Of a stretch of DNA of 15,376 nt, positions 1,626-15,376 are shown in pieces (positions within the stretch are counted from its first letter, which is position 1; each line of letters starts with the position of its first letter). The DNA lies in assembly GCA_039801885.1 (NCBI GenBank), contig JBDRVN010000042.1, positions 1-15,376 of the forward strand, in the 5' to 3' direction. This DNA comes from a candidate division WOR-3 bacterium (GTDB lineage Bacteria; Hydrothermota; Tepidihabitantia; Tepidihabitantales; DTDR01). The notes below the pieces were generated by a model that worked only from the letters and a program-made list of their open reading frames with translations, ran no database searches and was not told the DNA's origin. The translations under genes were made by a program, and so were the position numbers.

Positions 1626-2296
1626 TAAATTAATTTTGTCTTATTAATATAAAGTTCAAATTCGCAACCTAAAAATAAAGAAGCTCTCCTTGCCATTATC
1701 ATTCTATTTAAAAAGATTTCAAAATATTCCATTACCGGCGCAATCTTGATATCAATCTCTAAATCAAATATAATCTTTCTCTTTTTATTATCAACAGTTA
1801 ACATTGATTTAGTAACCGCATAATTTACTCGGTCGTGAATATCAAACTTTACTAATTCCGGATTTCTTACCCTTGACCGATGGACATCAGATTTATCGGC
1901 AATAATTAACGAGGCTGAGATTTCGGAAATCGGTGTTCCGTCTTCTTCGTGATGATTGCCCAATGCCGAAACCACTTCTAAAATCTCATAGTAAGGCATC
2001 TTCATTCTTTTTAATATCTGATAGGCAAGGATTGCGGACATATGTTCATGTTTATCCCGATTAACCACATTGCCAATATCATGTAAGAAACCGGTAATTG
2101 CTGCCAGTTCGGCTTTTCTTTCATTATATTCTAACTTTTTTAAAATATAATAACATCTTTCTGCAACCAGCCGCGAATGTCTCAATCCGTGCTCGGTATA
2201 ACCAATCATTTCTAATTGTTTATCAGCCGCTTTAATTAAAGCGATAACTTCTTTATCTTTAGATAAAACCTCTAAATTAACTTTTCTATTCTTCAT
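1625..2296 (-). CDS. HD-domain metal-dependent phosphohydrolase
   Basis: GYTEHGLRH (H36, H40), FLHDIGN (H72-D73), GNHHE and IADKSD motifs give the complete HD metal-ligand set. TAATG-coupled to both aspS and gatC. Confidence 0.9.
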   Translation of the reverse strand: MKNRKVNLEVLSKDKEVIALIKAADKQLEMIGYTEHGLRHSRLVAERCYYILKKLEYNERKAELAAITGFLHDIGNVVNRDKHEHMSAILAYQILKRMKMPYYEILEVVSALGNHHEEDGTPISEISASLIIADKSDVHRSRVRNPELVKFDIHDRVNYAVTKSMLTVDNKKRKIIFDLEIDIKIAPVMEYFEIFLNRMIMARRASLFLGCEFELYINKTKLI

Positions 2297-3591
2297 TAGG
2301 GTGCCAAACGATACCGGTCGCGAGGAAACAAACTTGCTTCTCTAATATTTTTCAAATTTAATATTTGACAGGTAAGTCTTTCCGCACCGATTGCCAAACC
2401 ACCGTGCGGTGGCATTCCGTATTTAAAAATCTCTAAATAAAATTGAAAGCTTTCTGGATTGTAACCAAAATGTTTAATACTCTCAAAAAGCATATCATAA
2501 TCGTGAATTCTTTGGCTACCGGTGGTGACTTCCATCCCTTTATAAAGTAAATCAAAACCCCGAGAATAAGTAGGATTCTTATCCGGCATAGTATAAAAAG
2601 GTCGAATGCTTCTGGGAAATTTAGTAACGAAAATAAAACTTGTTCCATATTTATTTAAAGAATACTCACACAAAATTCTTTCCTCTTCCGGTGTTAAATC
2701 GTCGCCTAAAAATTCTTTATTATACTCTTTTTTCAATATCTCCTTTGCTTCATAAAAGGGAATCCTTGGTATTTCTTTTATTTCTTCTAATTCACTATTA
2801 TATTCCTTTAAAATTTCTTTATACTCTTTTTTTAAATATTTAAAAAGATATTTCAAAAATTTAACTTCCAAATCCATCACATCATCTTCATCTTCAATAA
2901 ATCCCATTTCCCAATCCAAAGAAAGATATTCATTTAAATGGCGCGAGGTCTCGTGGTCTTCTGCCCGATAGACAAAACCAACTTCGTAGACCCTTTCAAA
3001 GCCAGCACCAACAAGCATCTGTTTATAAAACTGGGGACTTTGGGCAAGATAAGCAACTTGATCAAAATATTCGACCTTAAAAAGTTGACTACCCCCTTCG
3101 GTTCCGGAAGAAACTATCTTCGGAGTGTGGACTTCTAAAAAATCATTTTTCTCCAAAAATTCCCGATAAACTTTAACAATCCCTGCCTGAATTCTAAAAA
3201 TATTACCAATCTTAATATTTCTTAAACTCAATGGTCGGTAATCTAAAATCATATCTAACTTTAAATTTAAAAGGGATAAATCCCGATAATATTCAAAAGG
3301 TAAATTTGATTTTGGCAGATTTAAAATCTCAACCTTTTCAATCAAAATCTCCATTCCTTTTGGTGCCTGTGCCTCTTCTTTTACCTTACCAAAAATCTTA
3401 ACAACCGAAGCCTTTTCTAATTTATCTAAATTCTCAATCTCCTTATCACAAACTCCTTGAATCTGACCACTTCTATCCCTAATAATAAAAAACTTCAACT
3501 TACCAAGTTTTCTTATTCCTTCAATCCAGCCATAAATCAAAACCTCTTTATTTAAATATCTACCTAAATCCCTTATTAAAACCCGCTTCAT
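2296..3591 (-). CDS. aspS: Aspartate--tRNA(Asp/Asn) ligase, short archaeal/eukaryal-type, probably non-discriminating
   Basis: 431 aa with OB-fold anticodon domain (FFIIRDRSGQIQ), TEGG, Asp-specific LAQSPQFYKQ, motif 2 YRAEDHETSRHLNEY, GSQRIH and motif 3 GMPPHGGLAIGAER. No bacterial GAD insertion. Pro77 in the anticodon-domain loop (QAPKGME). Operonic with gatCA. Confidence 0.93.
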   Translation of the reverse strand: MKRVLIRDLGRYLNKEVLIYGWIEGIRKLGKLKFFIIRDRSGQIQGVCDKEIENLDKLEKASVVKIFGKVKEEAQAPKGMEILIEKVEILNLPKSNLPFEYYRDLSLLNLKLDMILDYRPLSLRNIKIGNIFRIQAGIVKVYREFLEKNDFLEVHTPKIVSSGTEGGSQLFKVEYFDQVAYLAQSPQFYKQMLVGAGFERVYEVGFVYRAEDHETSRHLNEYLSLDWEMGFIEDEDDVMDLEVKFLKYLFKYLKKEYKEILKEYNSELEEIKEIPRIPFYEAKEILKKEYNKEFLGDDLTPEEERILCEYSLNKYGTSFIFVTKFPRSIRPFYTMPDKNPTYSRGFDLLYKGMEVTTGSQRIHDYDMLFESIKHFGYNPESFQFYLEIFKYGMPPHGGLAIGAERLTCQILNLKNIREASLFPRDRYRLAP

Positions 3592-3631: not shown

Positions 3632-3649
3632 AAGAAGATTTATCTTCTT
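3632..3649. promoter_or_regulatory. 18-bp inverted repeat, candidate transcription-factor operator
   Basis: AAGAAGAT-TT-ATCTTCTT with perfect 8-bp arms, between the two divergent -35 boxes and overlapping the rightward -35 by 2 bp. Confidence 0.5.
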
Positions 3650-3675
3650 GAATTATTCTAAAGATTTATTATAAT
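3648..3675 (+). promoter_or_regulatory. Putative sigma70-type promoter for the four-gene membrane operon (leaderless)
   Basis: TTGAAT (3648-3653), 16-bp spacer, TATAAT (3670-3675), then 7 nt to the ATG at 3683. No Shine-Dalgarno. Confidence 0.68.
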
Positions 3676-3682
3676 TTATTCA

Positions 3683-4828
3683 ATGTATTTTTTTCTTTTT
3701 ATCTTTCTTTTCCAATATAATTATTTTGAATATATAAAAGTCTATGATACACCTTCGGATGAGGGTGGCAGTATTAGTTTAGAATGGCAGATAAAAGAAG
3801 AATTTATTTCCGAAGAAAACCCAATAAAATTTTTTGAGATTTATCGGAATGAGAAGAAAGATACTCTTTTAGAAAATGTTGGTTTTGTTTTATCTCAATA
3901 TAATTATTATGAAGATAAAGGCTTAAAAGATAATAAAGATTATTATTATCAAATTTGGGCAATAAGAGAGAAAGATACATTAAAATCAGAAGTTATTGGT
4001 CCGGTTATCTCTCGTCCCCAATGGTTTAACAAAAATCGTTTTAATGTCTTAATTATTACTATTATTTTATTCATTGTCTTTTTATATTATATTGAAAAGG
4101 CAAGAAAAGGTGAGAGGTTATTTGTTAGAAAGATAAGTGGTCTTGATGCGATTGATGATGCGGTGGGTCGGGCAACGGAAATGGGCAGGCCAATTCTATT
4201 TTCTTTTGGTCTTGGTTTTATTACTGATGTGGTAACAATTGCCGCCTTATCTATTTTATCAAAGATTGCCCGAAAGGCTGCCGAATATGGCACAAGATTA
4301 CTTATTCCTAATTATGACCCAATTGTGATGACTGCTGCCCAAGAGACAGTGAAAGAAGCCTATTTAGAAAGTGGCAGACCGGATTTATATAAAGAAGGTG
4401 ATATTACCTATTTGACTTCTGACCAGTTTGGTTATGCGGCGGGGTGTGATGGAATAATTATGCGAGAAAAGCCTGGTGCGATATTCTGGCAAGGATATTT
4501 CTTTGCCGAATCTTTAATCTTGGCGGAAACCGGCCACGCAGTTGGTGCTATCCAAATTGCCGGCACAACGGCGATAACCCAATTGCCCTTCTTCATTGCT
4601 GCCTGTGATTATACTCTAATTGGCGAAGAGATGTTTGCTGCCTCTTGCTATTTAAAACCCGAACCGCAAATGCTTGGCTCTTTAAAAGGTGAAGATTTTT
4701 TAAAGGCAGTTATCCTAATTATCTTTATCATTTCTGTTATCATTGCCACATTCTCAATCATCTTCAAAAATTTCTCTTTCTTAAATAATTTATACGAATT
4801 TATAAAAAATATTTTTACGATAAAATGA
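3683..4828 (+). CDS. Membrane protein with N-terminal fibronectin type III-like domain and C-terminal DUF6754-like domain
   Basis: Hydrophobic N-terminus and FN3-like beta-sandwich pattern (DTPSDEGGSISLEW...FEIYR...YEDKGLKDNKDYYYQIWA). Then a TM helix (VLIITIILFIVFLYY), an alpha/beta domain (RKISGLDAIDDAVGRATEMGRP...ESLILAETG...QIAGTT...ACDYTLIGEEMFAA) and a C-terminal TM. The DUF6754 assignment is from recognition of these motifs and needs HMM confirmation. Confidence 0.8.
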   Translation: MYFFLFIFLFQYNYFEYIKVYDTPSDEGGSISLEWQIKEEFISEENPIKFFEIYRNEKKDTLLENVGFVLSQYNYYEDKGLKDNKDYYYQIWAIREKDTLKSEVIGPVISRPQWFNKNRFNVLIITIILFIVFLYYIEKARKGERLFVRKISGLDAIDDAVGRATEMGRPILFSFGLGFITDVVTIAALSILSKIARKAAEYGTRLLIPNYDPIVMTAAQETVKEAYLESGRPDLYKEGDITYLTSDQFGYAAGCDGIIMREKPGAIFWQGYFFAESLILAETGHAVGAIQIAGTTAITQLPFFIAACDYTLIGEEMFAASCYLKPEPQMLGSLKGEDFLKAVILIIFIISVIIATFSIIFKNFSFLNNLYEFIKNIFTIK

Positions 4829-5523
4829 TTAGAAGTCAATTACCATTAATTATAACTTTCTTTACCGGAATGTTATTAATTATCACTTTTTTTATTCCCC
4901 ATAAGCCTTTTGGTGATTTAGAACAGAGGTTTTTAATCTGGTATTCAATTATTTCTGGTTTTACGGTCTTACTGGGCTTAGATAGTCTTGTGCGATACCA
5001 TTTGACAAAATTGAAAAGAGAATTTAATATCCATAGTCTTATTTTACTTTTTTCATTATTTTTAACTTTAATCTTAGGGTTCTATTCCTGGTTTAAATTT
5101 AAAACACCTTTTGCCTTAAATTCACCTTTTATGTATCTTTATACCTATGTGATTATACCATTACAAGCAACAATGTTTGCTTTGCTTGCCTTTTTTATTG
5201 CTTCGGCTGCCTATCGGGCATTTCGGGCAAGAACCTTTGAGGCAACTTTATTATTAATTGCGGCAACCATTGTTATGCTTGGTCGGGTACCGATCGGTTC
5301 TTATATCTGGAAAGGGATTGCCTATCTTATCTCATCTATCTTCCCAAAAATCCCTTACGAAGAACTTGCTAAAAAAGAAATCTTTGCGTTGATAAGTGAT
5401 TGGATAATGAATGTTCCTCAGAATGCCGCAAAAAGAGGAATCTTTATTGGCACCGCTCTCGGTGGTATTGCGATGTCAATAAGAATTATTTTAGGTATTG
5501 AAAGAACTTATATAACCAAATGA
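4825..5523 (+). CDS. Uncharacterised polytopic membrane protein (about 6 TM)
   Basis: 232 aa with multiple hydrophobic segments and conserved-looking motifs FALLAFFIASAAYRAFRAR and AAKRGIFIGTALG...RIILGIER. ATGA overlaps with both neighbours. Confidence 0.85.
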   Translation: MIRSQLPLIITFFTGMLLIITFFIPHKPFGDLEQRFLIWYSIISGFTVLLGLDSLVRYHLTKLKREFNIHSLILLFSLFLTLILGFYSWFKFKTPFALNSPFMYLYTYVIIPLQATMFALLAFFIASAAYRAFRARTFEATLLLIAATIVMLGRVPIGSYIWKGIAYLISSIFPKIPYEELAKKEIFALISDWIMNVPQNAAKRGIFIGTALGGIAMSIRIILGIERTYITK

Positions 5524-6341
5524 AAGATATTTGGACAAAATTAGCAACTATTGACCGAAGAATAATTTACCTTTTAGTATTTTTGGTTGTCTCTTTGCCA
5601 ATGATATTCAGAATGATTATGCCCATTCGGGTTTCTTCTGAAGTGAAAATGGCTTTTTCGGAGATTGATAATTTAAAACCTGGTTCAATTGTAATGATTT
5701 CTATTGATTATGACGCTGCCTCCGAGCCGGAATTACAACCAATGCTGATTGGGATTTTAAGACATTGCTTTTCCAAAGATATCAAAGTAATCTTATTAGG
5801 TCAATGGGCACTTGGACTTCCTTTAGGTGAGATTGCTTTAAATCAAGTTGCCAAGGAATATAATAAAAGATATGGTGAAGATTATGTGAACTTGGGTTAT
5901 CGACCCGGTTATACTGCCTTAATGGTTGGTATTGGAAAAGAGATAAGGGATTTCTTTCCTACGGATTATAAAGGAATTCCAATTGATTCTTTTCCTTTTA
6001 TGAGAAAAGTGAGAAATTATCAGCAGATTGATATCTTAGTTGGTTTAGAAGCCGGCGCAACTGGTGATGCTTGGGTTCAATTTGCTGGTGCCCGTTTTAA
6101 TCAAAAAATAATTTTAGGAACTACCGGTGTTGTCGCTCCGGATATGTTTCCTTATTTACAGGCAAAACAGATTGTTGGTTTAATTGGTGGTCTCCAAGGA
6201 GCAGCGGAATATGAGACATTAGTAAGGAAAGCGGGTAGTGCTATTTTGGGAATGCCTGCCCAATCTTTTGTCCATTTATTAATAATTATCTTTATTATTA
6301 TTGGTAATATTGGCTATTTTATTTTAAGAAAAAGGAAATGA
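5520..6341 (+). CDS. Uncharacterised membrane-anchored protein (TM - alpha/beta domain - TM), probable paralogue of the DUF6754-like domain
   Basis: 273 aa. N-terminal TM after IDRR, soluble domain with YGEDYVNLGY, ILGTTG and GLIGGLQGAAEYE, and a C-terminal TM followed by RKRK. ATGA-coupled on both sides. Confidence 0.85.
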   Translation: MKDIWTKLATIDRRIIYLLVFLVVSLPMIFRMIMPIRVSSEVKMAFSEIDNLKPGSIVMISIDYDAASEPELQPMLIGILRHCFSKDIKVILLGQWALGLPLGEIALNQVAKEYNKRYGEDYVNLGYRPGYTALMVGIGKEIRDFFPTDYKGIPIDSFPFMRKVRNYQQIDILVGLEAGATGDAWVQFAGARFNQKIILGTTGVVAPDMFPYLQAKQIVGLIGGLQGAAEYETLVRKAGSAILGMPAQSFVHLLIIIFIIIGNIGYFILRKRK

Positions 6342-6952
6342 TATTAAATATTATTGGCACTTGGCTGGCAGCTACTTTAACCTTAGCAATTTTCTCTTTC
6401 TTATATAAAGATAATCCCTTTTATAAACTTGCCGAACATATTTATGTTGGTGTCTCGGCTGGCTTTTGGGTTATTTATGTCTGGTCTTTTGATATCAAAC
6501 CAATGCTTATTGACCGATTTATAACAACAACAGGAGTTGAAAAATGGATATTATTAATTCCGGCAATCTTAGGTATCTTAATGCTTACCAGGTGGTTTCC
6601 CAAAACTGCTTGGATATCAAGAATTCCTTTATCTTTTACGATTGGTATTGGTGCCGGTTTAGGAGTTACTGCCAGTATCCAAGGTTTTCTAATTCCCCAA
6701 ATCGGTGCTACTTTGTTACCTTTAACAACAATTAATAATATCTTATTGGTTATTGGTGTTATCTCAACAATTATCTATTTTTATTTCTCAAAGGAATTTA
6801 AAGGAACTTGGAAATTTTTCTCCCGTTTAGGCATTATTTTTATTATGGTAGCCTTTGGTGCCTCTTTTGGTTATACTGTTATGGCAAGAATTTCATTATT
6901 AATTGGTAGGATTTATTTTCTTTTACATAACTTCTTACATATTATCCCTTAA
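6338..6952 (+). CDS. Uncharacterised polytopic membrane protein (about 6 TM, three internal hairpin repeats)
   Basis: 204 aa, highly hydrophobic, with FSFLYKDNPFYKLAEHIYVGVSAG and FGASFGYTVMARISLL motifs. ATGA-coupled to the upstream gene. Confidence 0.85.
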   Translation: MILNIIGTWLAATLTLAIFSFLYKDNPFYKLAEHIYVGVSAGFWVIYVWSFDIKPMLIDRFITTTGVEKWILLIPAILGILMLTRWFPKTAWISRIPLSFTIGIGAGLGVTASIQGFLIPQIGATLLPLTTINNILLVIGVISTIIYFYFSKEFKGTWKFFSRLGIIFIMVAFGASFGYTVMARISLLIGRIYFLLHNFLHIIP

Positions 6953-7952
6953 TCCTTTCTTTCCAATCTTTATATACTCGGGAAATACGATAGATAATAT
7001 AAGCAAAAATTAAAATTAAAAGGAGAAAATAAAAATAACCAGAAAAATAAAGGAAAATATTTCCCTTCTTGCCAATTTTCACAATTTCTAAACCCCGGTC
7101 ACTATCTAAATAGGCATAAGGATAAATTACAAAAACATCTTTTATATTATTTTCACTTTGATAATAATTAATCTCTTGTGGTGAATAAGGGTCTTTCACA
7201 TCAATTATGCTTAAACCAATATCCGTAGCCAGATAGATATAAGGCTTCTTATAAAATAAAGCAAGGGAATAACCAGCTACTGAATAGTCAATTATCTTTT
7301 CGGGATAACTTTTTATTTTTACATCAACAATTCCCAAACCCCTTTTACCACAAGCGAGATATATCAAATTATTTTCTCCATCAACATCTAAAATCGGTTT
7401 AATATCTTTTAGATAGCCAACTTCTCGCGGATTATAAATATCTTTTATGTCAATAATCTTTAAACCTTCTTCCTTATCAACAATATAACAGTAATTTTTA
7501 TAAATAAAAAAATTGCGACAAGAAGCAAAACCAGAAAGACGACCAATTTGATAAGGATTATTTAAATTCTCAATATTATAGATTTCAAAACCTCTTTTTG
7601 TTGCCAAATAGATATAAGAATTGATAACTTTAATATCATTACAACATTCTTTTAGGTCAAAAGAATTTATCAAAAAAGGAGAGTAATGGAAAGGATTTTT
7701 CACATCCCAAATTTCTATTCCCTTTTTTGTAGCCAGATAGAGTTTATCTTTTAAATAGTAAAGGCTATTTACTTTATCTTTGGCAATTATCTCTTCAGAA
7801 AGGATTTTTAAACTTTCTTTATCTTGGGCATTGTAGATAAAAACTTTTTCTCCCAAAGCATAAAAAAGGATTTCTCTTTTCTTATCATAGGTAATTGTCT
7901 TATTGATTAAAAGGTTAAAAAGAAAAAGTAAAAGAAATATTTTACTCTTCAC
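6942..7952 (-). CDS. LVIVD-repeat beta-propeller surface protein with N-terminal signal-like segment and C-terminal TM anchor
   Basis: About seven repeats of roughly 40 aa, e.g. YIYLATKRGFEIYNIENLNNPYQIG, YCYIVDKEEGLKIIDIKDIYNPREVG, YIYLATDIGLSIIDVKDPYSPQEIN. C-terminal FYFLLLILIFAYIIY followed by basic residues. GTG start. Confidence 0.85.
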   Translation of the reverse strand: MKSKIFLLLFLFNLLINKTITYDKKREILFYALGEKVFIYNAQDKESLKILSEEIIAKDKVNSLYYLKDKLYLATKKGIEIWDVKNPFHYSPFLINSFDLKECCNDIKVINSYIYLATKRGFEIYNIENLNNPYQIGRLSGFASCRNFFIYKNYCYIVDKEEGLKIIDIKDIYNPREVGYLKDIKPILDVDGENNLIYLACGKRGLGIVDVKIKSYPEKIIDYSVAGYSLALFYKKPYIYLATDIGLSIIDVKDPYSPQEINYYQSENNIKDVFVIYPYAYLDSDRGLEIVKIGKKGNIFLYFSGYFYFLLLILIFAYIIYRISRVYKDWKERIKG

Positions 7953-9453
7953 TGATTATTAAACCTTCAAAGATGTAAATTTCGATATCTTTATCTTTGT
8001 AACTATCCGGCTCTAAACCGGCTTTTAGGCAGGTATGCTTTAAAAAGGTTTCTCTGTCCCAACCGTATTCGGTGGCAACCTGGGGCAGAAGAAGACCTTG
8101 ATAAAAACCTTTTTTGATAAATATCCCATGCTTACCAACAACAATCTTATTAATATCATCTATCTTTCTTAATGGTGAAAGGACAGTAATCTCAATTTTA
8201 ATATCTTTTAACTCTCGCAAGCTGACCGGTGGAAATCTTGGGTCTCTTAATGCCGCATTTATTGCGTTATCAATAACTCCTTCGTATAATGGTTTTATCC
8301 CTTCAACATAACCAATACAACCCCTTAACTCACCAAACTTATTTAAGGTAACAAAGACACCGTATCTCTTTTTTAAATTCTCAGAAGTTATTTTAAAATC
8401 TGGTATATTTTTATTATTAAGATAATTTTCTAAGGTTTTTCGGGCAATATTTAATAATTCCTTTTTATCATCTTCACTCAGTTTTAATTCAAACTCTTCT
8501 TTGCTTAAATTTTTCTCTTGTTTATTTTCCTTCGGAATAACAAATGCGACTGAGCCATAGCCAACACAATATCCGGTCTTTACACCCATCACATCATTAG
8601 AATTGGTATAATTTAAGATAATTGCCTTTGCCTTTTTAGAAAGATTTTTCGCCGTTAAAATTCCAATAAGAATAGGAAAACCGCCACAGGCAGCAATACT
8701 TTCTCTTAATAATTTTTCATAGAAATCTTTTGGTTCTAATTTTTCAATATGACTTAATGTCCGCTTATCAGTCTCAACACATTCTTGATAAGAATAGCCA
8801 TGATATAAATCGGAAGAGATAAGAAAGATAATTTTTTTCTGGGAAGTTTTTATCACTTCGCTAATTGCCTTTGCCAGGTTTTCACATTCTTCATATTTGG
8901 GAAATAGAACCATTATCGGCACAATTTTAAAATCTTTATAAATTACTTGTAAAAAGGGAATTTGGACTTCTAAAGAATGTTCGTAATTATGTACTTCTTT
9001 TAAATCTTTTAAATAGGGACATTTATTTTTCAACTCTTTTGCTATCTCTTCATCAATCATAACTTCACCTAATGGTGTCTGCCAAGAACCATCTCCGTAT
9101 AAAGCAAAACCAGTAAAACTTGCCTGGTGTGAAGGACCAAGAAGAATAATTGTTTTGACATCTAAATCTTTAATAAATTTATAAGAATGGGCAGCCACTT
9201 TACCAGAAAAAGGATAACCAGCATGGGGAGAAAGCACGCCAATAATCTTATCTTTTATTTCGGAAACTTTTGCCCAATTGAGATAGCTTCTAATATCTTT
9301 CTCTAATTGAATCTTATCAGCCGGATAAAACTCGCCACTCACATAAGGTTTTCTAATCATTTTTGCCTCCAATTTCTTTTGTGGCTTTGAGCCACACATT
9401 AAAATTGATATTAAAATTAATATTAAAAAAATAATAATATTTTTAAACTTCAC
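7942..9453 (-). CDS. amrB: AmmeMemoRadiSam system protein B (MEMO1-like) - protein A (AMMECR1-like) fusion with N-terminal lipoprotein-like signal
   Basis: MEMO domain: RKPYVSGEFYP, SPHAGY, LLGPSH, EHSLEVQIPFLQ, SSDLYH, ACG, VGYGS. AMMECR1 domain: GVFVTL, LRGCIG, AALRDPRF, IEITVLSP, GKHGI, GLLLPQVATE, CLKAGL. The GTG start overlaps the TPR stop (GTGA); there is an alternative ATG at 9360. Confidence 0.93.
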   Translation of the reverse strand: MKFKNIIIFLILILISILMCGSKPQKKLEAKMIRKPYVSGEFYPADKIQLEKDIRSYLNWAKVSEIKDKIIGVLSPHAGYPFSGKVAAHSYKFIKDLDVKTIILLGPSHQASFTGFALYGDGSWQTPLGEVMIDEEIAKELKNKCPYLKDLKEVHNYEHSLEVQIPFLQVIYKDFKIVPIMVLFPKYEECENLAKAISEVIKTSQKKIIFLISSDLYHGYSYQECVETDKRTLSHIEKLEPKDFYEKLLRESIAACGGFPILIGILTAKNLSKKAKAIILNYTNSNDVMGVKTGYCVGYGSVAFVIPKENKQEKNLSKEEFELKLSEDDKKELLNIARKTLENYLNNKNIPDFKITSENLKKRYGVFVTLNKFGELRGCIGYVEGIKPLYEGVIDNAINAALRDPRFPPVSLRELKDIKIEITVLSPLRKIDDINKIVVGKHGIFIKKGFYQGLLLPQVATEYGWDRETFLKHTCLKAGLEPDSYKDKDIEIYIFEGLIISEE

Positions 9454-9716
9454 TCTTTTACTAATTCATCAAGCCTTTTATTGGCTTCATCAAAATCGGG
9501 TTTTAATTCCAAACTTTTCCGATACATCTCCTTTGCCTTATCAATTTCATTTAAACCTTCATAGGCAATTCCTAATTGATAATAGATAAGATAATCTTCT
9601 TTTATTTTTAATGCCTCTTTAAAAACTTCAATTGCCTCCTTATAATTTTTATTTAAAAGATAAAACTGCGCAGTTTCCAATAACTGGTCATAATCTTCTT
9701 TCTTTATCTTTTTCAT
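9450..9716 (-). CDS. Small tetratricopeptide-repeat protein
   Basis: 88 aa with two TPR-like units (AQFYLLNKNYKEAIEVFKEALKI; YYQLGIAYEGLNEIDKAKEMYRKSLELKPDF). ATGA-coupled to trkA. Confidence 0.85.
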   Translation of the reverse strand: MKKIKKEDYDQLLETAQFYLLNKNYKEAIEVFKEALKIKEDYLIYYQLGIAYEGLNEIDKAKEMYRKSLELKPDFDEANKRLDELVKE

Positions 9717-10396
9717 TCTTTAACAATCCTTTCTAAATCCTTTTCTTTTCCTAAAACCACTAAGATATCATTTTCTAATATCATATCTTCACCTTTGGGC
9801 GAAACAATTATCTCTTCTTTCATTTCCGGAATGCCATTTTCATTAAGATAGGGATTTTTCCTTTTAATCAAAATTACCGTAAGACCAAATTTCTCCCTTA
9901 AATTTAATTCTTTTAATGTTTTATTATAGAAACTTTTGGGCGCGGAAATTTCGGCAATGGAATATTCCGGATTTACCTCTAACACTTCAAAGAATCTCTT
10001 GGAATGGTATGCCTTTGCCAACCTTATTGCCGTCTCTTTTTCCGGTAGAATTACTTTATCCGCACCAACCCTTTTTAAAATCTCGGCATGCAATTCATCC
10101 ACCGCCTTTGCTACTACCTCTTTAACTCCCATCTCCTTTAAAAGCATTGTAATCAAAATACTGGCATCAATCCGTTGACCAACACTAACAATTACACAAT
10201 CCACTTCATTAATACCACTCTCTTTTAACGCCTTATCATCGGTCGCATCCATAATTAAAGCACTGGTTGCCTTATCACTAAACTCATTTACTTTACTATC
10301 ATCCTTATCAATCACAATCACATCAAAACCTTCATCAATTAGTGCCTTTGCCATTTGGCTACCAAATCTTCCCAAACCAATCACACAAAAGGTCAT
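9713..10396 (-). CDS. trkA: TrkA/KtrA-family potassium uptake regulatory subunit (RCK_N plus RCK_C)
   Basis: VIGLGRFG Rossmann motif, VIVIDKD, MDATD, VVAKA, GADKVILPEKE, and RCK_C KTLKELNLREKFGLTVILIKR...DILVVLG. At 227 aa it is the single-RCK-pair (KtrA-like) type. Confidence 0.92.
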   Translation of the reverse strand: MTFCVIGLGRFGSQMAKALIDEGFDVIVIDKDDSKVNEFSDKATSALIMDATDDKALKESGINEVDCVIVSVGQRIDASILITMLLKEMGVKEVVAKAVDELHAEILKRVGADKVILPEKETAIRLAKAYHSKRFFEVLEVNPEYSIAEISAPKSFYNKTLKELNLREKFGLTVILIKRKNPYLNENGIPEMKEEIIVSPKGEDMILENDILVVLGKEKDLERIVKE

Positions 10397-10401
10397 AATA
10401 T

Positions 10402-10430
10402 ATAATAAGTAAAAACTTCCTAATAGTCAA
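10402..10430 (-). promoter_or_regulatory. Putative sigma70-type promoter for trkA-TPR-amrBA-LVIVD (leaderless)
   Basis: Minus strand: TTGACT (10430-10425, inside the last codons of the C25 gene), 17-bp spacer, TATTAT (10407-10402), 5 nt to the ATG at 10396. Confidence 0.55.
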
Positions 10431-13400
10431 TTATTAACTTATTAATGATTTCTTTCTTCTCTTTTCTTTCTAAGGAAGATAAACTTAATTTGTAAAGATA
10501 AATACCCTTTGCGAAATTGTTTATTTCGATCGGCAGGGAGTTAAAGCCAAAATTAAAGAGCAAATTGTTCTTTTCTAATATCTTTCTGCCATTAATGGTA
10601 TAAATTTTAATACTTCCCAAGCAGCCTTCGTTTAAAAAGAAAGTAAAATATAGATGATTTTTCAGCCGGACAACCGCCAAATCTTTTAGCTCAATTTTTG
10701 GTTCTATCTTGGTCTTTAAGATAATTACTTTCTCTTTTTTATTTAAAAGGTTATCATAGATAATAATCCGGCAGTTATTAAAATCTCTTTTTAAACTTAT
10801 TGGTATTTTAGAATAATAAAAGGTATCAATAAAATAAAAATAGCCGCCCAAATCAATAGCCTCATCTTCAACTATTATCTTTGGTGAATAAATTTCTCCC
10901 TTTTTTAAAAATATCCCGCTCTCATCAAATGCCCTTATCGCCAATTCAAAATTCTTTTCTACTTCACTGGTATCTTTCAGGTTTTTATTATTGGCATATA
11001 AGTAAATATTTGGTGGCAAACTATCAAAATTCTCATAAGGTAATGTATCCCTAAAAAAGGTATCAATGTTAAAGGTAAAAGAAGAATCTTTTGTCTTATA
11101 AAATATTGATAGTTTTAAACTTTTAGGTATTTCCCAATAATAATTTTCCGGTGAACCTAAAAAGATAGTATCTAATCTTAAACCTTTCGGAAAGACAAAG
11201 GAGAAAGAATAAAAAGTATCTTTTAATATCTTCTTAGAAAGAAAAATATCTTCACCCGGAAGGTTATAAAAGATATCAATAACCGGTGATTTATATCTTC
11301 TTTTTCTTTTACCCAAAGAAAACCTTATCTCACTAAATTCTACCCCTTTTTTAAGAAAAATCTTTCCGTTAATCTTTTTACCCGGTAAAAAAGGCTGTTC
11401 GGTTATCTCTAAATCTAATTCTCTTCTTTTTGGCAGGTTTATTTTTGTTAAGGGCTCACCAAATAAATGGTAAAAGGTATTTACCAACCAGGCATTATAA
11501 AAACAATCTCCTAAAATATCTTTATTATTATAAATAAGTGCCAAAACAAATCTCCTTAAAAGCTCTTCATTACCTGGTGGTGAAGTTCCCTTTATCGCAC
11601 CAATTGTCGCAATAAAACCTTCTCTATTTCTGATAAGTTCTTCGGATAATGCCTCATATTTTGTATCATCAAACCGACCAACACCACAACTACCAAAATA
11701 ACCAATCGGATAATTTGGTCTTGCCTTTATTCGCTTCACATCAAGTAAGGTTAATAATTTCTCGTGGGCAATCTGAAAACCAGCACCATGACCAAAATAG
11801 AAACAAAAAGAAATCCCTTTATCATTTAATAGTCTTATAAACTCATCACGAGCATTGGTCTTATCCTCATTACCAAGAAAGGGAAATTCCGTAAGATATA
11901 ATTTATCAACATCATAATCCTTGGGAATAATTGAAGCAACATTCTCACAATTTATAATATGGTCTGCCCGAAACTCATCCGGCTCACTTGGACTTCCTTT
12001 ATACTCATCATCCGCCAAGAAAAGAATTCTCTTTTTATAACCCGTTAAATTCTTCTCATATTCTTTTAATTTATCCAAATATTCCTTTATCTCACTTTCC
12101 CTTCTTAATGGTAATCTTGTTAAAACGAAATCCGGACTTCTGCCATTGCCTTCAAAATCAGCAAAATAGGAATCTAAGGCATAAATAGCCGTATTATAAA
12201 CATTGTAATCAAAACCATAACCAACCTCATAAGTAAATATTTGTGGTTTATTATACAAAAGATTCCGATAATCATAAGTGGCATCACCAACCAAACAACC
12301 ATACAAAGGTCTCTTTAAAGAGAAAAATTTCTTTAATGAATAAGGTTCCTCACACCCAAATAGATAATGGTCAATTATCTCTTCTATCTTAAAAATCTCA
12401 GTGCTTATCTCTTTATCCCGATATCTTTTAAGTTGCTGACAGGCATAATATAAATCACTTGGACAAATAATGAGATAGAAAGCCGACCTTAAATGGATAT
12501 CACTATTTTGATAATAACTCTTATTCTCTATTCTTTTTACTCTCTTTATTCTATCTAAATCACTAATATATAAAATTGTTGTATCAAAGGCATTATAAGA
12601 AAAATATAAAGTATCTTTCTCAATTTGATAATCTTTTAATATCTTTGGTGAAAACTCATTTGTGATATCTAAAATAATTGGTTTTTTAACTTTACTTATT
12701 TTTATATTATGCCTCTTTATGCTATCTAAGATAATAAAAAATGGTGCATCTTGGAAATTTAATTGCCTTAAATAGCCAAACTCAAAATAATCGGTATAAA
12801 AATTCATTGCCTTATTCTCTCTATAAAAAACAAGTTTCAGATTTATTTTATCTTTTATTGGATACTCTATTTTCTTGGTATAAACTGAACCAGCAGGCGG
12901 CAAAGCAGAAAATATTTTTAAAGTATCGATTAAATTATTATCCAAAAAAATTTCCATTTTAAAATCAAAATAACTATCCGCAAATATCCTAAATTTTAGG
13001 CTATCTAACAAAAAGGAATTATTGATATTAAAACTATAACTTATCTCTTTACTTACCTCGTAACTTGCCTTTTCTATCTTATCCCAAATCCATAATAGGC
13101 CACCACGCGCAGGACAATCCTTATCCAATTCAATATGCTTCTTCTCATAGCCAAAATTCTTAAATATTTCACTTCTATCCGCAAATCCCGATACCTCTTT
13201 CATTCTCTTTCCCTCTTTCTCACCAATACATAGCCAATAGATATTATATAAGGTATATAAATTATGAGAATAATCTTTAAATTTATTTCTAAAATAAGAG
13301 GCACCACGCGCATAAAATAAAATATAATCATCTTCATTAAATCTATTACTATCTTTAATAAAAAAGAGATAAGGTATTTCGGTTAAGGTATCAGGATAAT

Positions 13401-14025
13401 AGGTATTTGGAGTATAATCACCAATATTAAAAATCCTTATCTTCTTTGGCGAAATTAAAGAGAGATTAAGTCCCGCCTCTTTTAAATCCTTACCGGTTAT
13501 TTTATATAAGCCCGAACTATCAATATAGATCTTAAAAATATAATAAAAATCCGAAAAAAAATTCCTTAAAGTATCAAGAGAATTTAATGGGGTCAAAGAA
13601 ATGGTATCTTCTTCGTATTCTAAACTTATTGGATTATAAATAATTCTCTTATTATCAATTTGAAAGGGATAATAGGTTATTTTCAATATCTCTTTATTGC
13701 GAAAATTTAATGTCTCAATTATAAGAAAATTCTCAGGATATTTTACCAATTCTAAATTAATATCACCGTCTCCTTCCAAAATACCAAATCTTGATGCCTT
13801 AGGAATGGTAAAAGGAAAATCGCTCTCTTTACTTCTTAAATAATTTATCTTAACCGAATTCTTTTTCGCAAAGAGCACTTTACTTGGCAAATAAGGATAA
13901 GGATATGCCTCCTGAAATAAAAAACCCTTCTTAATTAAAGTCTCTTTAAAAGAAGAGAAGTTATCAAAGTTTAAAGATAGATTACTAAAATCAAGATATA
14001 AATTAAAGAGAAAAAGAACTAACAT
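10420..14025 (-). CDS. C25 (gingipain-family) cysteine peptidase, PorU-like, with T9SS type A-like C-terminal sorting domain
   Basis: PorU-like N-terminal region (KIYIDSSGLYKITGKDL, DYILFYARG, HNLYTLYNIYWL), LVGDATYDYRN, FLADDE, catalytic FGHG (His746) and GSCGVGRFD (Cys780), YHLFGEP, DSLPPNI, DESGI. C-terminal domain IKIYTINGRKI...GIYLYKL...KLII. Confidence 0.88.
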   Translation of the reverse strand: MLVLFLFNLYLDFSNLSLNFDNFSSFKETLIKKGFLFQEAYPYPYLPSKVLFAKKNSVKINYLRSKESDFPFTIPKASRFGILEGDGDINLELVKYPENFLIIETLNFRNKEILKITYYPFQIDNKRIIYNPISLEYEEDTISLTPLNSLDTLRNFFSDFYYIFKIYIDSSGLYKITGKDLKEAGLNLSLISPKKIRIFNIGDYTPNTYYPDTLTEIPYLFFIKDSNRFNEDDYILFYARGASYFRNKFKDYSHNLYTLYNIYWLCIGEKEGKRMKEVSGFADRSEIFKNFGYEKKHIELDKDCPARGGLLWIWDKIEKASYEVSKEISYSFNINNSFLLDSLKFRIFADSYFDFKMEIFLDNNLIDTLKIFSALPPAGSVYTKKIEYPIKDKINLKLVFYRENKAMNFYTDYFEFGYLRQLNFQDAPFFIILDSIKRHNIKISKVKKPIILDITNEFSPKILKDYQIEKDTLYFSYNAFDTTILYISDLDRIKRVKRIENKSYYQNSDIHLRSAFYLIICPSDLYYACQQLKRYRDKEISTEIFKIEEIIDHYLFGCEEPYSLKKFFSLKRPLYGCLVGDATYDYRNLLYNKPQIFTYEVGYGFDYNVYNTAIYALDSYFADFEGNGRSPDFVLTRLPLRRESEIKEYLDKLKEYEKNLTGYKKRILFLADDEYKGSPSEPDEFRADHIINCENVASIIPKDYDVDKLYLTEFPFLGNEDKTNARDEFIRLLNDKGISFCFYFGHGAGFQIAHEKLLTLLDVKRIKARPNYPIGYFGSCGVGRFDDTKYEALSEELIRNREGFIATIGAIKGTSPPGNEELLRRFVLALIYNNKDILGDCFYNAWLVNTFYHLFGEPLTKINLPKRRELDLEITEQPFLPGKKINGKIFLKKGVEFSEIRFSLGKRKRRYKSPVIDIFYNLPGEDIFLSKKILKDTFYSFSFVFPKGLRLDTIFLGSPENYYWEIPKSLKLSIFYKTKDSSFTFNIDTFFRDTLPYENFDSLPPNIYLYANNKNLKDTSEVEKNFELAIRAFDESGIFLKKGEIYSPKIIVEDEAIDLGGYFYFIDTFYYSKIPISLKRDFNNCRIIIYDNLLNKKEKVIILKTKIEPKIELKDLAVVRLKNHLYFTFFLNEGCLGSIKIYTINGRKILEKNNLLFNFGFNSLPIEINNFAKGIYLYKLSLSSLERKEKKEIINKLIIDY

Positions 14026-15016: not shown

Positions 15017-15376
15017 TCATTTAATTTCTTTAATTTCCTTAACAATTTTGCCTTCTTTGTTGATATAAAATAATTTGTCGCTACTCATTACCCGTGCCAA
15101 GCCTCCAGAAAAATCTTCCGCATAATCAAATTGGGGCTCTATCACATACTTGCCTTCCTTGTTTATATATCCCCATTTGCCAATTTTCTCGCCACCAACA
15201 TTTACCACTGCCAATCCTTCAGAAAAATCAGAAGCCCAATCAAATTGGGGATCGATCACAACTCTGCCCTCCTTGTCAATATATCTCCATTTGCTACCAG
15301 TAATAAAACCATATTCATCTAGTTTACCACCAATCCTTACCACTGCCAATCCTTCAGAAAAATCAGAAGCCCAATC
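15017..15376 (-). CDS. WG-repeat (KWG) protein, 5'-truncated by the window edge
   Basis: The frame is open from 15376 (DWASDFSEGLAVVRIGG...), so the track start at 15349 is an internal TTG. Repeats KWRYIDKEGRVVIDPQFDWASDFSEGLAVV and KWGYINKEGKYVIEPQFDYAEDFSGGLARV. Confidence 0.9.
   Translation of the reverse strand, partial: DWASDFSEGLAVVRIGGKLDEYGFITGSKWRYIDKEGRVVIDPQFDWASDFSEGLAVVNVGGEKIGKWGYINKEGKYVIEPQFDYAEDFSGGLARVMSSDKLFYINKEGKIVKEIKEIK
15202..15376. repeat. Exact 40-bp direct repeat within the WG-repeat gene (15202-15241 and 15337-15376)
   Basis: TTACCACTGCCAATCCTTCAGAAAAATCAGAAGCCCAATC occurs twice, 135 bp (45 codons) apart, encoding DWASDFSEGLAVV. The second copy is cut by the window end. 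Confidence 0.95.

Follow-up and report, generated by a model that had tools for sequence, protein, structure and literature searches.

Pfam DUF6754 (PF20539) is a catalogue entry without a function. Proteins of the GlmL/MutL family (PF13941, TIGR01319) are accessory to glutamate mutase and to the ornithine degradation cluster. The Rnf and Na+-NQR complexes contain two six-transmembrane (six-TM) subunits of ~200 amino acids (aa), TM-anchored alpha/beta subunits on the periplasmic and the cytoplasmic side, and a peripheral barrel-sandwich subunit. Energy-coupling factor (ECF) transporters and the phosphotransferase system (PTS) follow a copy-number logic of many membrane modules to one cytoplasmic module. 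MTH777/MT0777 (PDB 1kjn), a structural-genomics protein of unknown function, also belongs among the closest known systems. Here we analysed a four-gene membrane cassette (g1 to g4) on a contig of a candidate division WOR-3 bacterium (GenBank assembly GCA_039801885.1, contig JBDRVN010000042.1). The window is this entire contig (C42 in our numbering, 15,376 bp); the source genome has 1.56 Mb in 70 contigs and is 91% complete.

The g1 protein and its paralogue in the same genome match the DUF6754 model end to end, and the partners g2, g3 and g4 have no family model of any kind. A GlmL-like protein of the actin fold (ASKHA), encoded by a recurrent partner gene, matches GlmL/MutL over its full length with both ASKHA motifs. 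It differs from GlmL/MutL in an extra C-terminal domain, in scores below the equivalog cut-offs, and in its neighbours, which are the soluble protein c1, the small protein c2 and the cassette instead of a B12 mutase. The likeness to Rnf and Na+-NQR is one of layout only: the cassette shows no sequence match to them, no flavin or Fe-S motifs and no equivalent of RnfD/NqrB. With ECF transporters and the PTS the cassette shares the copy-number logic in most genomes, but it has no homology to EcfA/T/S or EI/HPr/EII, and its putative energiser has an actin fold and is not a P-loop ATPase or a phosphotransfer protein. The ATPase of ATP-binding cassette (ABC) transporters has no counterpart here either, with neither ABC_tran nor Walker A/B in the cassette and an ABC ATPase in one small neighbour cluster only (three loci, opposite strand). 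The conservation and the ancient origin of this four-subunit membrane module are firmly supported by the data below, as is its functional link to c1 and the GlmL-like protein.

The cassette and a promoter-like sequence in front of it are as follows:

3648-3675, forward strand: promoter-like TTGAAT-16-TATAAT, 10/12 positions matching, ending 8 nt 5' of the g1 ATG
3683-4828, forward strand: g1, 381 aa
4825-5523, forward strand: g2, 232 aa
5520-6341, forward strand: g3, 273 aa
6338-6952, forward strand: g4, 204 aa

The operon is established. Coordinates and letters confirm four coupled open reading frames (ORFs) of these sizes, as the original prediction had described them, joined by three ATGA overlaps (4825-4828, 5520-5523 and 6338-6341) in which an upstream TGA stop meets a downstream ATG start. 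Oppositely oriented genes had also been noted on both sides and are there, AspRS (-) upstream and a beta-propeller gene (-) downstream. A second full cassette is found in the same genome on contig C11 (locus L003) in the same order, with 49, 38, 38 and 50% identity for g1 to g4, respectively. Related loci were taken from a one-genome-per-species collection: 599 of 604 pattern matches encode a g1 relative, and from the top 80 we obtained 78 loci, which represent at least 12 phyla. Co-occurrence of the four genes in other genomes had been set beforehand as one of the tests on which the predicted complex should stand or fall. It was found in the paralogous cassette and in 78/78 related loci, where the genes follow the order 1-2-3-4 on one strand as far as the contigs extend. 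By their labels, the loci belong to WOR-3/Stahlbacteria, Eisenbacteria, Zixibacteria, Coatesbacteria, Fermentibacteria/Aegiribacteria, Edwardsbacteria, Latescibacterota, Ignavibacteriales, Cloacimonadota, Poribacteria and Planctomycetota (Brocadiaceae, Scalindua); one metagenome-assembled genome (MAG) each is labelled Bacillota and Proteobacteria. Median spacers in the related loci are 12 nt (g1-g2), 22 nt (g2-g3) and 13.5 nt (g3-g4).

Seventy-nine cassettes with four complete ORFs were counted in 62 loci, and 16 loci carry two or three cassettes in tandem. In a concatenated tree the window cassette and its paralogue fall into separate deep clades. We compared the paralogues by locus pairs drawn from 17 multi-cassette entries (the 16 tandem loci plus the two cassettes of the window's genome). 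All four genes gave the same cassette pairing in 79 of 136 pairs compared to 17 expected, the pairs being non-independent. The tight linkage of g1 to g4 is far beyond chance. Natural fusions are nearly absent: two proteins of more than 478 aa match g3 and are probably assembly artefacts. Long ORFs in the gene calls proved to be start-codon artefacts.

The families are large. g1 has 2306 representatives at 50% identity; with clustering at 90% identity, g2 forms more than 6863 clusters and g3 forms 1640. Among the matches listed for g2 and g3, every name given is 'hypothetical' or 'uncharacterized'; homologues that carry organism names come mostly from candidate division WOR-3. Of 151 genomes sampled from the window's phylum, 140 have g3 (123 of 131 high-quality genomes), usually with two to three matches and at most six, and 10 of the 11 misses come from one genus. 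In the phylum to which an Ignavibacteriales MAG belongs, all 51 genomes have g3, mostly with five matches; among Planctomycetota, 16 of 61 genomes do.

Clustering of the flanking ORFs revealed a recurrent same-strand block, c2, GlmL-like and c1, directly upstream of the cassette. Sixteen loci have the GlmL-like gene upstream, 16 have c1 and 13 have both; where the upstream sequence reaches at least 3 kb (44 loci), each of the two is found in 12. The GlmL-like protein is an ASKHA protein of ~600-625 aa with an additional C-terminal domain of ~120 aa, and the copy in the window's genome shows a full-length PF13941 match of 431.7 bits. The copy tested against the NCBIfam equivalogs scored 226.6 for GlmL (cut-off 475) and 205 for Or-4 (cut-off 600), below the threshold in both cases. 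No B12 mutase subunit gene is found among the neighbours of the GlmL-like gene. The motifs DCGSTTTK and DIGGATTD, which we take to be the ASKHA phosphate-binding motifs, are intact in 13/13 full-length copies and in the copy of the window's genome. c1 (~375 aa, soluble) has 55-60% identity across phyla. Its matches to RnfC_N (21.2 bits, E 3e-4) and Biotin_lipoyl (20.8 bits) are both under the Pfam cut-offs, its PDB profile search gave noise (best E 0.015), and RnfC_N is found in 19% of the members of its Atlas neighbour clusters. c2 (~100-165 aa) has no Pfam match.

The phyletic link of the cassette to c1 and the GlmL-like protein is established. In the 61 Planctomycetota genomes, c1 and strong PF13941 matches occur in exactly the same 16 genomes as g3, with one weak extra PF13941 match elsewhere. 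Five genomes from the one genus of the window's phylum that lacks g3 show neither c1 (0/5) nor PF13941 (0/5); five sister genera have both (5/5). c1 was found in 5/5 carriers of five further lineages, in some of them more than 1 Mb away from the cassette. In the Ignavibacteriales phylum, c1 is present in 50/51 genomes with a single match in 47/51, compared to mostly five g3 matches. The original prediction treated the four genes as a unit. Their co-occurrence stands, but the unit is not complete, since c1 and the GlmL-like ASKHA ATPase co-occur strictly with the cassette and both lie directly upstream in 13 loci. A recurrent, separately encoded ATPase had been proposed as a partner to look for, and the GlmL-like ASKHA protein is such a partner. 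The link to c2 is probably functional as well.

In the window's genome the partners are dispersed: gcvPA-gcvPB-c2-GlmL-like is found on contig C38 (12786-17519, L082), where it is followed by QueF and a Vut_1 transporter, and c1 is located at the end of contig C3. A 277-aa gene after c1 was considered as a further partner and rejected, as it has no relative in the 78 loci. A continuous string of gcvP, c2, GlmL, c1 and cassette occurs in three Fermentibacteria/Aegiribacteria loci (L018, L019 and L021), and LplA is found 3' of the cassette in four loci. The gcvP adjacency hints at a tie to glycine cleavage. Some genomes carry a second, diverged pair of a GlmL-like protein (~338-365 bits) and a c1-like protein (partial matches, ~55-300), located at G018:C118, G081:C53, G181:C4, G212:C106, G205:C19 and G168:C95 in our numbering of genomes and contigs. 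This pair suggests a sister system.

All four cassette proteins are membrane proteins by hydropathy, and for g1 and g3 the AlphaFold2 models show the same. Two polytopic subunits (g2 and g4) and two TM-anchored alpha/beta subunits (g1 and g3) had been read from the letters, and hydropathy and AlphaFold2 agree with this, the alpha/beta domain lying between two TM helices. The domain architecture of g1 and g3 is established. g1 was correctly recognised as DUF6754, with a Pfam match of 378.4 bits (cut-off 27) in which residues 111-360 align to model positions 2-251 of 257; the paralogous g1 scores 388.7 bits. It starts with a hydrophobic N-terminus and an Fn3-like beta-sandwich (~13-112), followed by a TM helix (117-141), an alpha/beta domain of the (beta-alpha)6 type (154-324), a second TM helix (328-360) with the invariant residues D338 and K341, and a C-terminal helix. 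The DUF6754 domain is probably cytoplasmic and the Fn3 domain outside, because Fn3 is an outer domain and a K/R-rich stretch follows the first TM helix. In g1 relatives the DUF6754 domain is always C-terminal, and the outer N-terminal part varies from ~30 to ~1000 residues. For the 150 best g1 relatives, we typed the outer part of the 40 longest: it carries Fn3 in three, a PQQ/BamB-like beta-propeller in nine, HEAT repeats in one and nothing recognisable in 27.

The g3 model, built from 76 sequences, has a predicted local distance difference test (pLDDT) score of 96.4. It shows a TM helix (13-29), a six-stranded (beta-alpha)6 domain (40-235) and a second TM helix (240-272), in which H252 is invariant and N263 near-invariant, before the basic C-terminus RKRK. 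The alpha/beta domain is likely periplasmic and the C-terminus cytoplasmic, because the C-terminus is basic and the N-terminal DRR is conserved. In both alpha/beta domains, conserved acidic and polar residues, some of them invariant, cluster at the C-terminal edges of the beta-strands. The topology of g2 and g4 was predicted from profile-averaged hydropathy and K/R counts. g2 has six hydrophobic segments, a conserved loop AYRAFRAR (127-134) on the cytoplasmic side and a C-terminal GIER motif; its six predicted TM segments would run N-in/C-in. g4 has ~six TM segments and the conserved motifs FLYKDNPFYK and FGASFGYTVMAR. The cassette had been described as free of Walker A/B, which is borne out by a motif search of both cassettes, in which none of the eight proteins showed Walker A, a Walker B-like motif or CxxC. 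The window's g2 and g4 contain no Cys.

Searches against known families gave little for the partners of g1. g2, g3 and g4 match no family in Pfam or NCBIfam (both E <= 0.01). PDB profile searches returned only K-channel noise for g2 (E >= 0.39), noise for g3 (E >= 0.88), no sequence at E <= 10 for g4, and Fn3/titin for the N-terminus of g1 with nothing further. In the fold searches with g1, Fn3 matches filled both lists and masked the DUF6754 alpha/beta domain; Foldseek 'Nir2' matches of g1 were discarded as meaningless (TM-score 0.22, root-mean-square deviation 27). TMD0_ABC gave weak matches in 19 of 77 g2 relatives scanned singly (best E 8.7e-5) and none for the window's g2; these are probably a composition effect of helix bundles. 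Seventy g4 relatives scanned singly against Pfam showed no consistent family. Internal homology was not detected: BLASTP gave nothing for g1 against g3 or g2 against g4, and hhalign gave probabilities of 0.6% (A1 vs A3) and 0.5% (A2 vs A4). PADLOC returned no family for any of the seven proteins (g1 to g4, c1, c2 and GlmL-like), and in the ESM Atlas g3 and c1 match 'hypothetical' clusters only. Within the library of papers searched, there was no mention of DUF6754 or PF20539 and nothing relevant for GlmL. As the original prediction expected, no characterised transporter family was matched, by Pfam, NCBIfam, PDB profiles or the single scans of relatives; for g2, g3 and g4 this covers the Pfam and NCBIfam models of PTS, TRAP, TTT, MFS and other curated transporter families. 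The cassette thus appears to be new, with no tie found to a characterised system; g2 and g4 were compared by sequence alone and a known transporter fold could still emerge.

The cassette had also been credited with its own promoter. The TTGAAT-16-TATAAT sequence is present, but such matches occur at chance frequency in this AT-rich region (18 observed vs 16.1 +/- 4.3 expected from shuffled sequence). A separate promoter is not established, because promoter-like matches are no commoner than in shuffled sequence. The paralogous cassette (L003, ~9365-9370) has TATAAT 6 nt 5' of the g1 ATG. No obvious Shine-Dalgarno sequence was seen 5' of any of the eight genes in both cassettes, and both may be transcribed as leaderless mRNAs. 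In the RNA libraries, one 340-nt contig with three mismatches spans 4113-4452, and the remaining RNA pieces are short or divergent. This RNA coverage is too small for a claim of transcription or of an operon transcript.

From the synteny and the co-divergence of the four genes, the subunits very likely form one complex, presumably a heterotetramer. g2 and g4, with ~six TM segments each, would make up the membrane core of this inner-membrane complex. g3 would place its alpha/beta domain in the periplasm. The outer part of g1, variably Fn3 or a beta-propeller, would face the outside, and its conserved DUF6754 domain would extend into the cytoplasm. This assembly would act together with a mostly single-copy cytoplasmic set made up of the GlmL-like actin-fold ATPase, the 375-aa barrel-sandwich protein c1 and the small c2. 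This one ATPase module would serve several paralogous cassettes with individual specificities, probably for solutes derived from amino acids or peptides. We infer a modular uptake system because many membrane cassettes stand against mostly one cytoplasmic set and because the outer domain is variable and the cytoplasmic one constant. The conserved acidic and polar residues at the strand edges of both alpha/beta domains also count as a transport-like feature. ECF transporters and the PTS show a comparable sharing of general parts; we hold the uptake reading with low confidence, at a probability of about one in three. The substrate class is weakly suggested by scattered neighbours of the cassettes, which include M28 and C25 peptidases, SHMT, urocanase, formiminotransferase, ornithine/arginine decarboxylase, an aminotransferase, GcvP, AsnA and TonB/ExbBD.

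Several points weigh against a modular uptake system. The neighbours are heterogeneous, and the amino-acid genes among them were counted without an enrichment baseline. g2 and g4 match no transporter family, whether by Pfam, NCBIfam, PDB profiles or their relatives scanned singly. Those GlmL relatives that have been characterised assist B12-dependent mutases and are not ATPases of transporters, and the GlmL-like copy tested (226.6 bits) lies below the 475-bit equivalog cut-off of GlmL itself. In three Fermentibacteria/Aegiribacteria loci, as in the window's genome, c2-GlmL follows gcvPA-gcvPB, and a metabolic role fits this equally well. The co-occurrence counts come from related genomes and therefore represent few independent gains and losses. 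Multi-copy cassettes are typical of transporters without proving one.

The window has a GC content of ~31% and its stretch is contained in hot-spring metagenome runs. The other features of the window are listed here:

2296-3591, reverse strand: AspRS, upstream of g1
further upstream, opposite strand to the cassette: HD-domain protein
upstream flank, opposite strand to the cassette: GatC and GatA ORFs, identified from their translations alone
6942-7952, reverse strand: LVIVD/PorZ-N-like beta-propeller, 336 aa, with a hydrophobic C-terminal anchor
7942-9453, reverse strand: Memo + AMMECR1 fusion in one 503-aa ORF (Memo-like 219 bits, AMMECR1 202 bits)
downstream flank, opposite strand to the cassette: TPR protein
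9713-10396, downstream flank, opposite strand to the cassette: TrkA
10420-14025, reverse strand: PorU-like C25 peptidase, 1201 aa, with a type IX secretion system (T9SS) C-terminal sorting domain
15017-15376, reverse strand: ORF running off the contig end, with ~45-aa repeat units that each carry the motif DPQFDWASDFSEGLAVV

The beta-propeller gene and g4 converge, with an overlap of 11 nt; LVIVD proteins are also found near the cassettes at L072 and L077. In the Memo + AMMECR1 fusion the two domains are preceded by a hydrophobic N-terminus. The two families are usually found on separate proteins. A TrkH-TrkA pair is located two genes 3' of the cassette in a Stahlbacteria locus (L006, 4871-6973), and the proximity of TrkA to the cassette is probably synteny common to close relatives and not functional. 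The C25 peptidase scores 300.6 bits on the T9SS sortase model, under the cut-off of 420, and PorU-like C25 genes are found directly upstream of the cassette at L004 and L005. Upstream of the paralogous cassette lies a cluster (L003, C11, 4431-6345) of DUF6653, DUF2703, ferritin and Fe/Mn superoxide dismutase, with AsnA immediately adjoining; this oxidative-stress cluster seems unrelated to the cassette. An Asp/Asn link, with AspRS and GatCA by the window cassette and AsnA by the paralogue, was considered and dropped because it does not recur at other loci.

Some of these neighbours would fit an envelope machine, in which an inner-membrane platform reaches the wall or the outer membrane through the periplasmic g1 arm and the g3 domain. 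It would export, insert or tether envelope components such as a lipid, a polysaccharide or a surface protein, with the GlmL-like ATPase as its power source or regulator in the cytoplasm. The outer domains of g1 are scaffold types (Fn3, BamB/PQQ-like beta-propeller, HEAT), and the carriers are, by their labels, mostly FCB-group lineages, Planctomycetota and Poribacteria, which are diderm. C25 peptidases with a T9SS tail (10420-14025 in the window, L004, L005), LVIVD/FG-GAP proteins (6942-7952 in the window, L072, L077, L056) and TonB/ExbBD (L008, L018-L021) lie nearby. The surface-gene neighbours, however, are inconsistent between phyla, and the cassette proteins show no match in Pfam/NCBIfam to Lpt, Lol, Mla, Tol, T9SS or exosortase families. 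Such machines are usually single-copy, and the genomes here usually have two to five g3 matches (maximum six) and often tandem cassettes. We regard an envelope machine as unlikely. Polar invariants within TM helices (g3 H252 and the near-invariant N263; g1 D338 and K341) would suit an Rnf/Nqr-like ion pump without cofactors, in which ATP hydrolysis by the GlmL-like protein or glycine decarboxylation drives ion movement. The subunit inventory parallels that of Rnf/Nqr, gcvPA-gcvPB precedes c2-GlmL, and in four loci LplA follows the cassette. c1 brings its weak RnfC_N match (21.2 bits, E 3e-4; 19% of Atlas neighbour-cluster members) and Biotin_lipoyl match (20.8 bits), but these are under the Pfam cut-offs and compatible with any barrel-sandwich hybrid. 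The window's g2 and g4 have no Pfam match, and Rnf-Nqr is not among the first 25 families listed for their 77 and 70 relatives. With no CxxC or other cofactor motif, no Cys in g2 and g4 and no counterpart of RnfD/NqrB, and with five paralogous pumps per genome being odd, an ion pump is improbable.

The variable extracytoplasmic and invariant cytoplasmic domain of g1, which we count for a modular uptake system, would also suit a transmembrane sensor. In such a sensor a ligand would bind to the outer part of g1 and to the g3 domain in the periplasm, and DUF6754 would signal to c1 and the GlmL-like protein; alpha/beta domains are present on both membrane faces, and multiple paralogues could match different ligands. 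On the other hand, no kinase, cyclase, methyl-accepting, HD-GYP or DNA-binding domain is found in the cassette or recurs beside it, and two six-TM subunits exceed the needs of a sensor. Near-universal multi-copy presence in 1.5-Mb genomes fits housekeeping better. We give the sensor a small chance. Finally, the four proteins might share an operon and act independently on a common process without assembly, which the near absence of natural fusions (the two proteins of more than 478 aa that match g3) would allow. This is very improbable: the order is invariant in 78/78 loci of many phyla with very short spacers, whole cassettes and not single genes are duplicated, and the four genes co-diverge by paralogue type. 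The invariant polar residues in the TM helices of the single-span subunits g1 and g3 suggest packing against other helices.

Taken further, the modular uptake system would make the cassette, the GlmL-like protein, c1 and c2 an unrecognised class of primary active membrane machine driven by an ASKHA ATPase and not by a P-loop, P-type or rotary one. One engine would serve several interchangeable four-subunit modules in core uptake or translocation in many uncultured FCB-group bacteria, Planctomycetota, Poribacteria and related lineages. We consider this wider claim quite unlikely as it stands. If our reading is right, the cassette would be among the most widespread unstudied bacterial membrane systems, with at least 599 stretches in a one-genome-per-species collection. 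Two whole phyla have it in nearly every genome and in several copies, even at genome sizes of 1.5 Mb, and a single DUF number is all its annotation. Metabolic models of WOR-3, Zixibacteria, Ignavibacteria, anammox Planctomycetota and similar groups, in which substrate entry is largely guessed, would gain a missing part. The link to the GlmL-like protein gives a testable function to a family that has none outside B12-mutase operons, and an undescribed form of ATP coupling at the membrane might come to light through it. Should the proposed mechanism be wrong, a seven-gene set (g1 to g4, c1, c2 and GlmL-like) is now defined.

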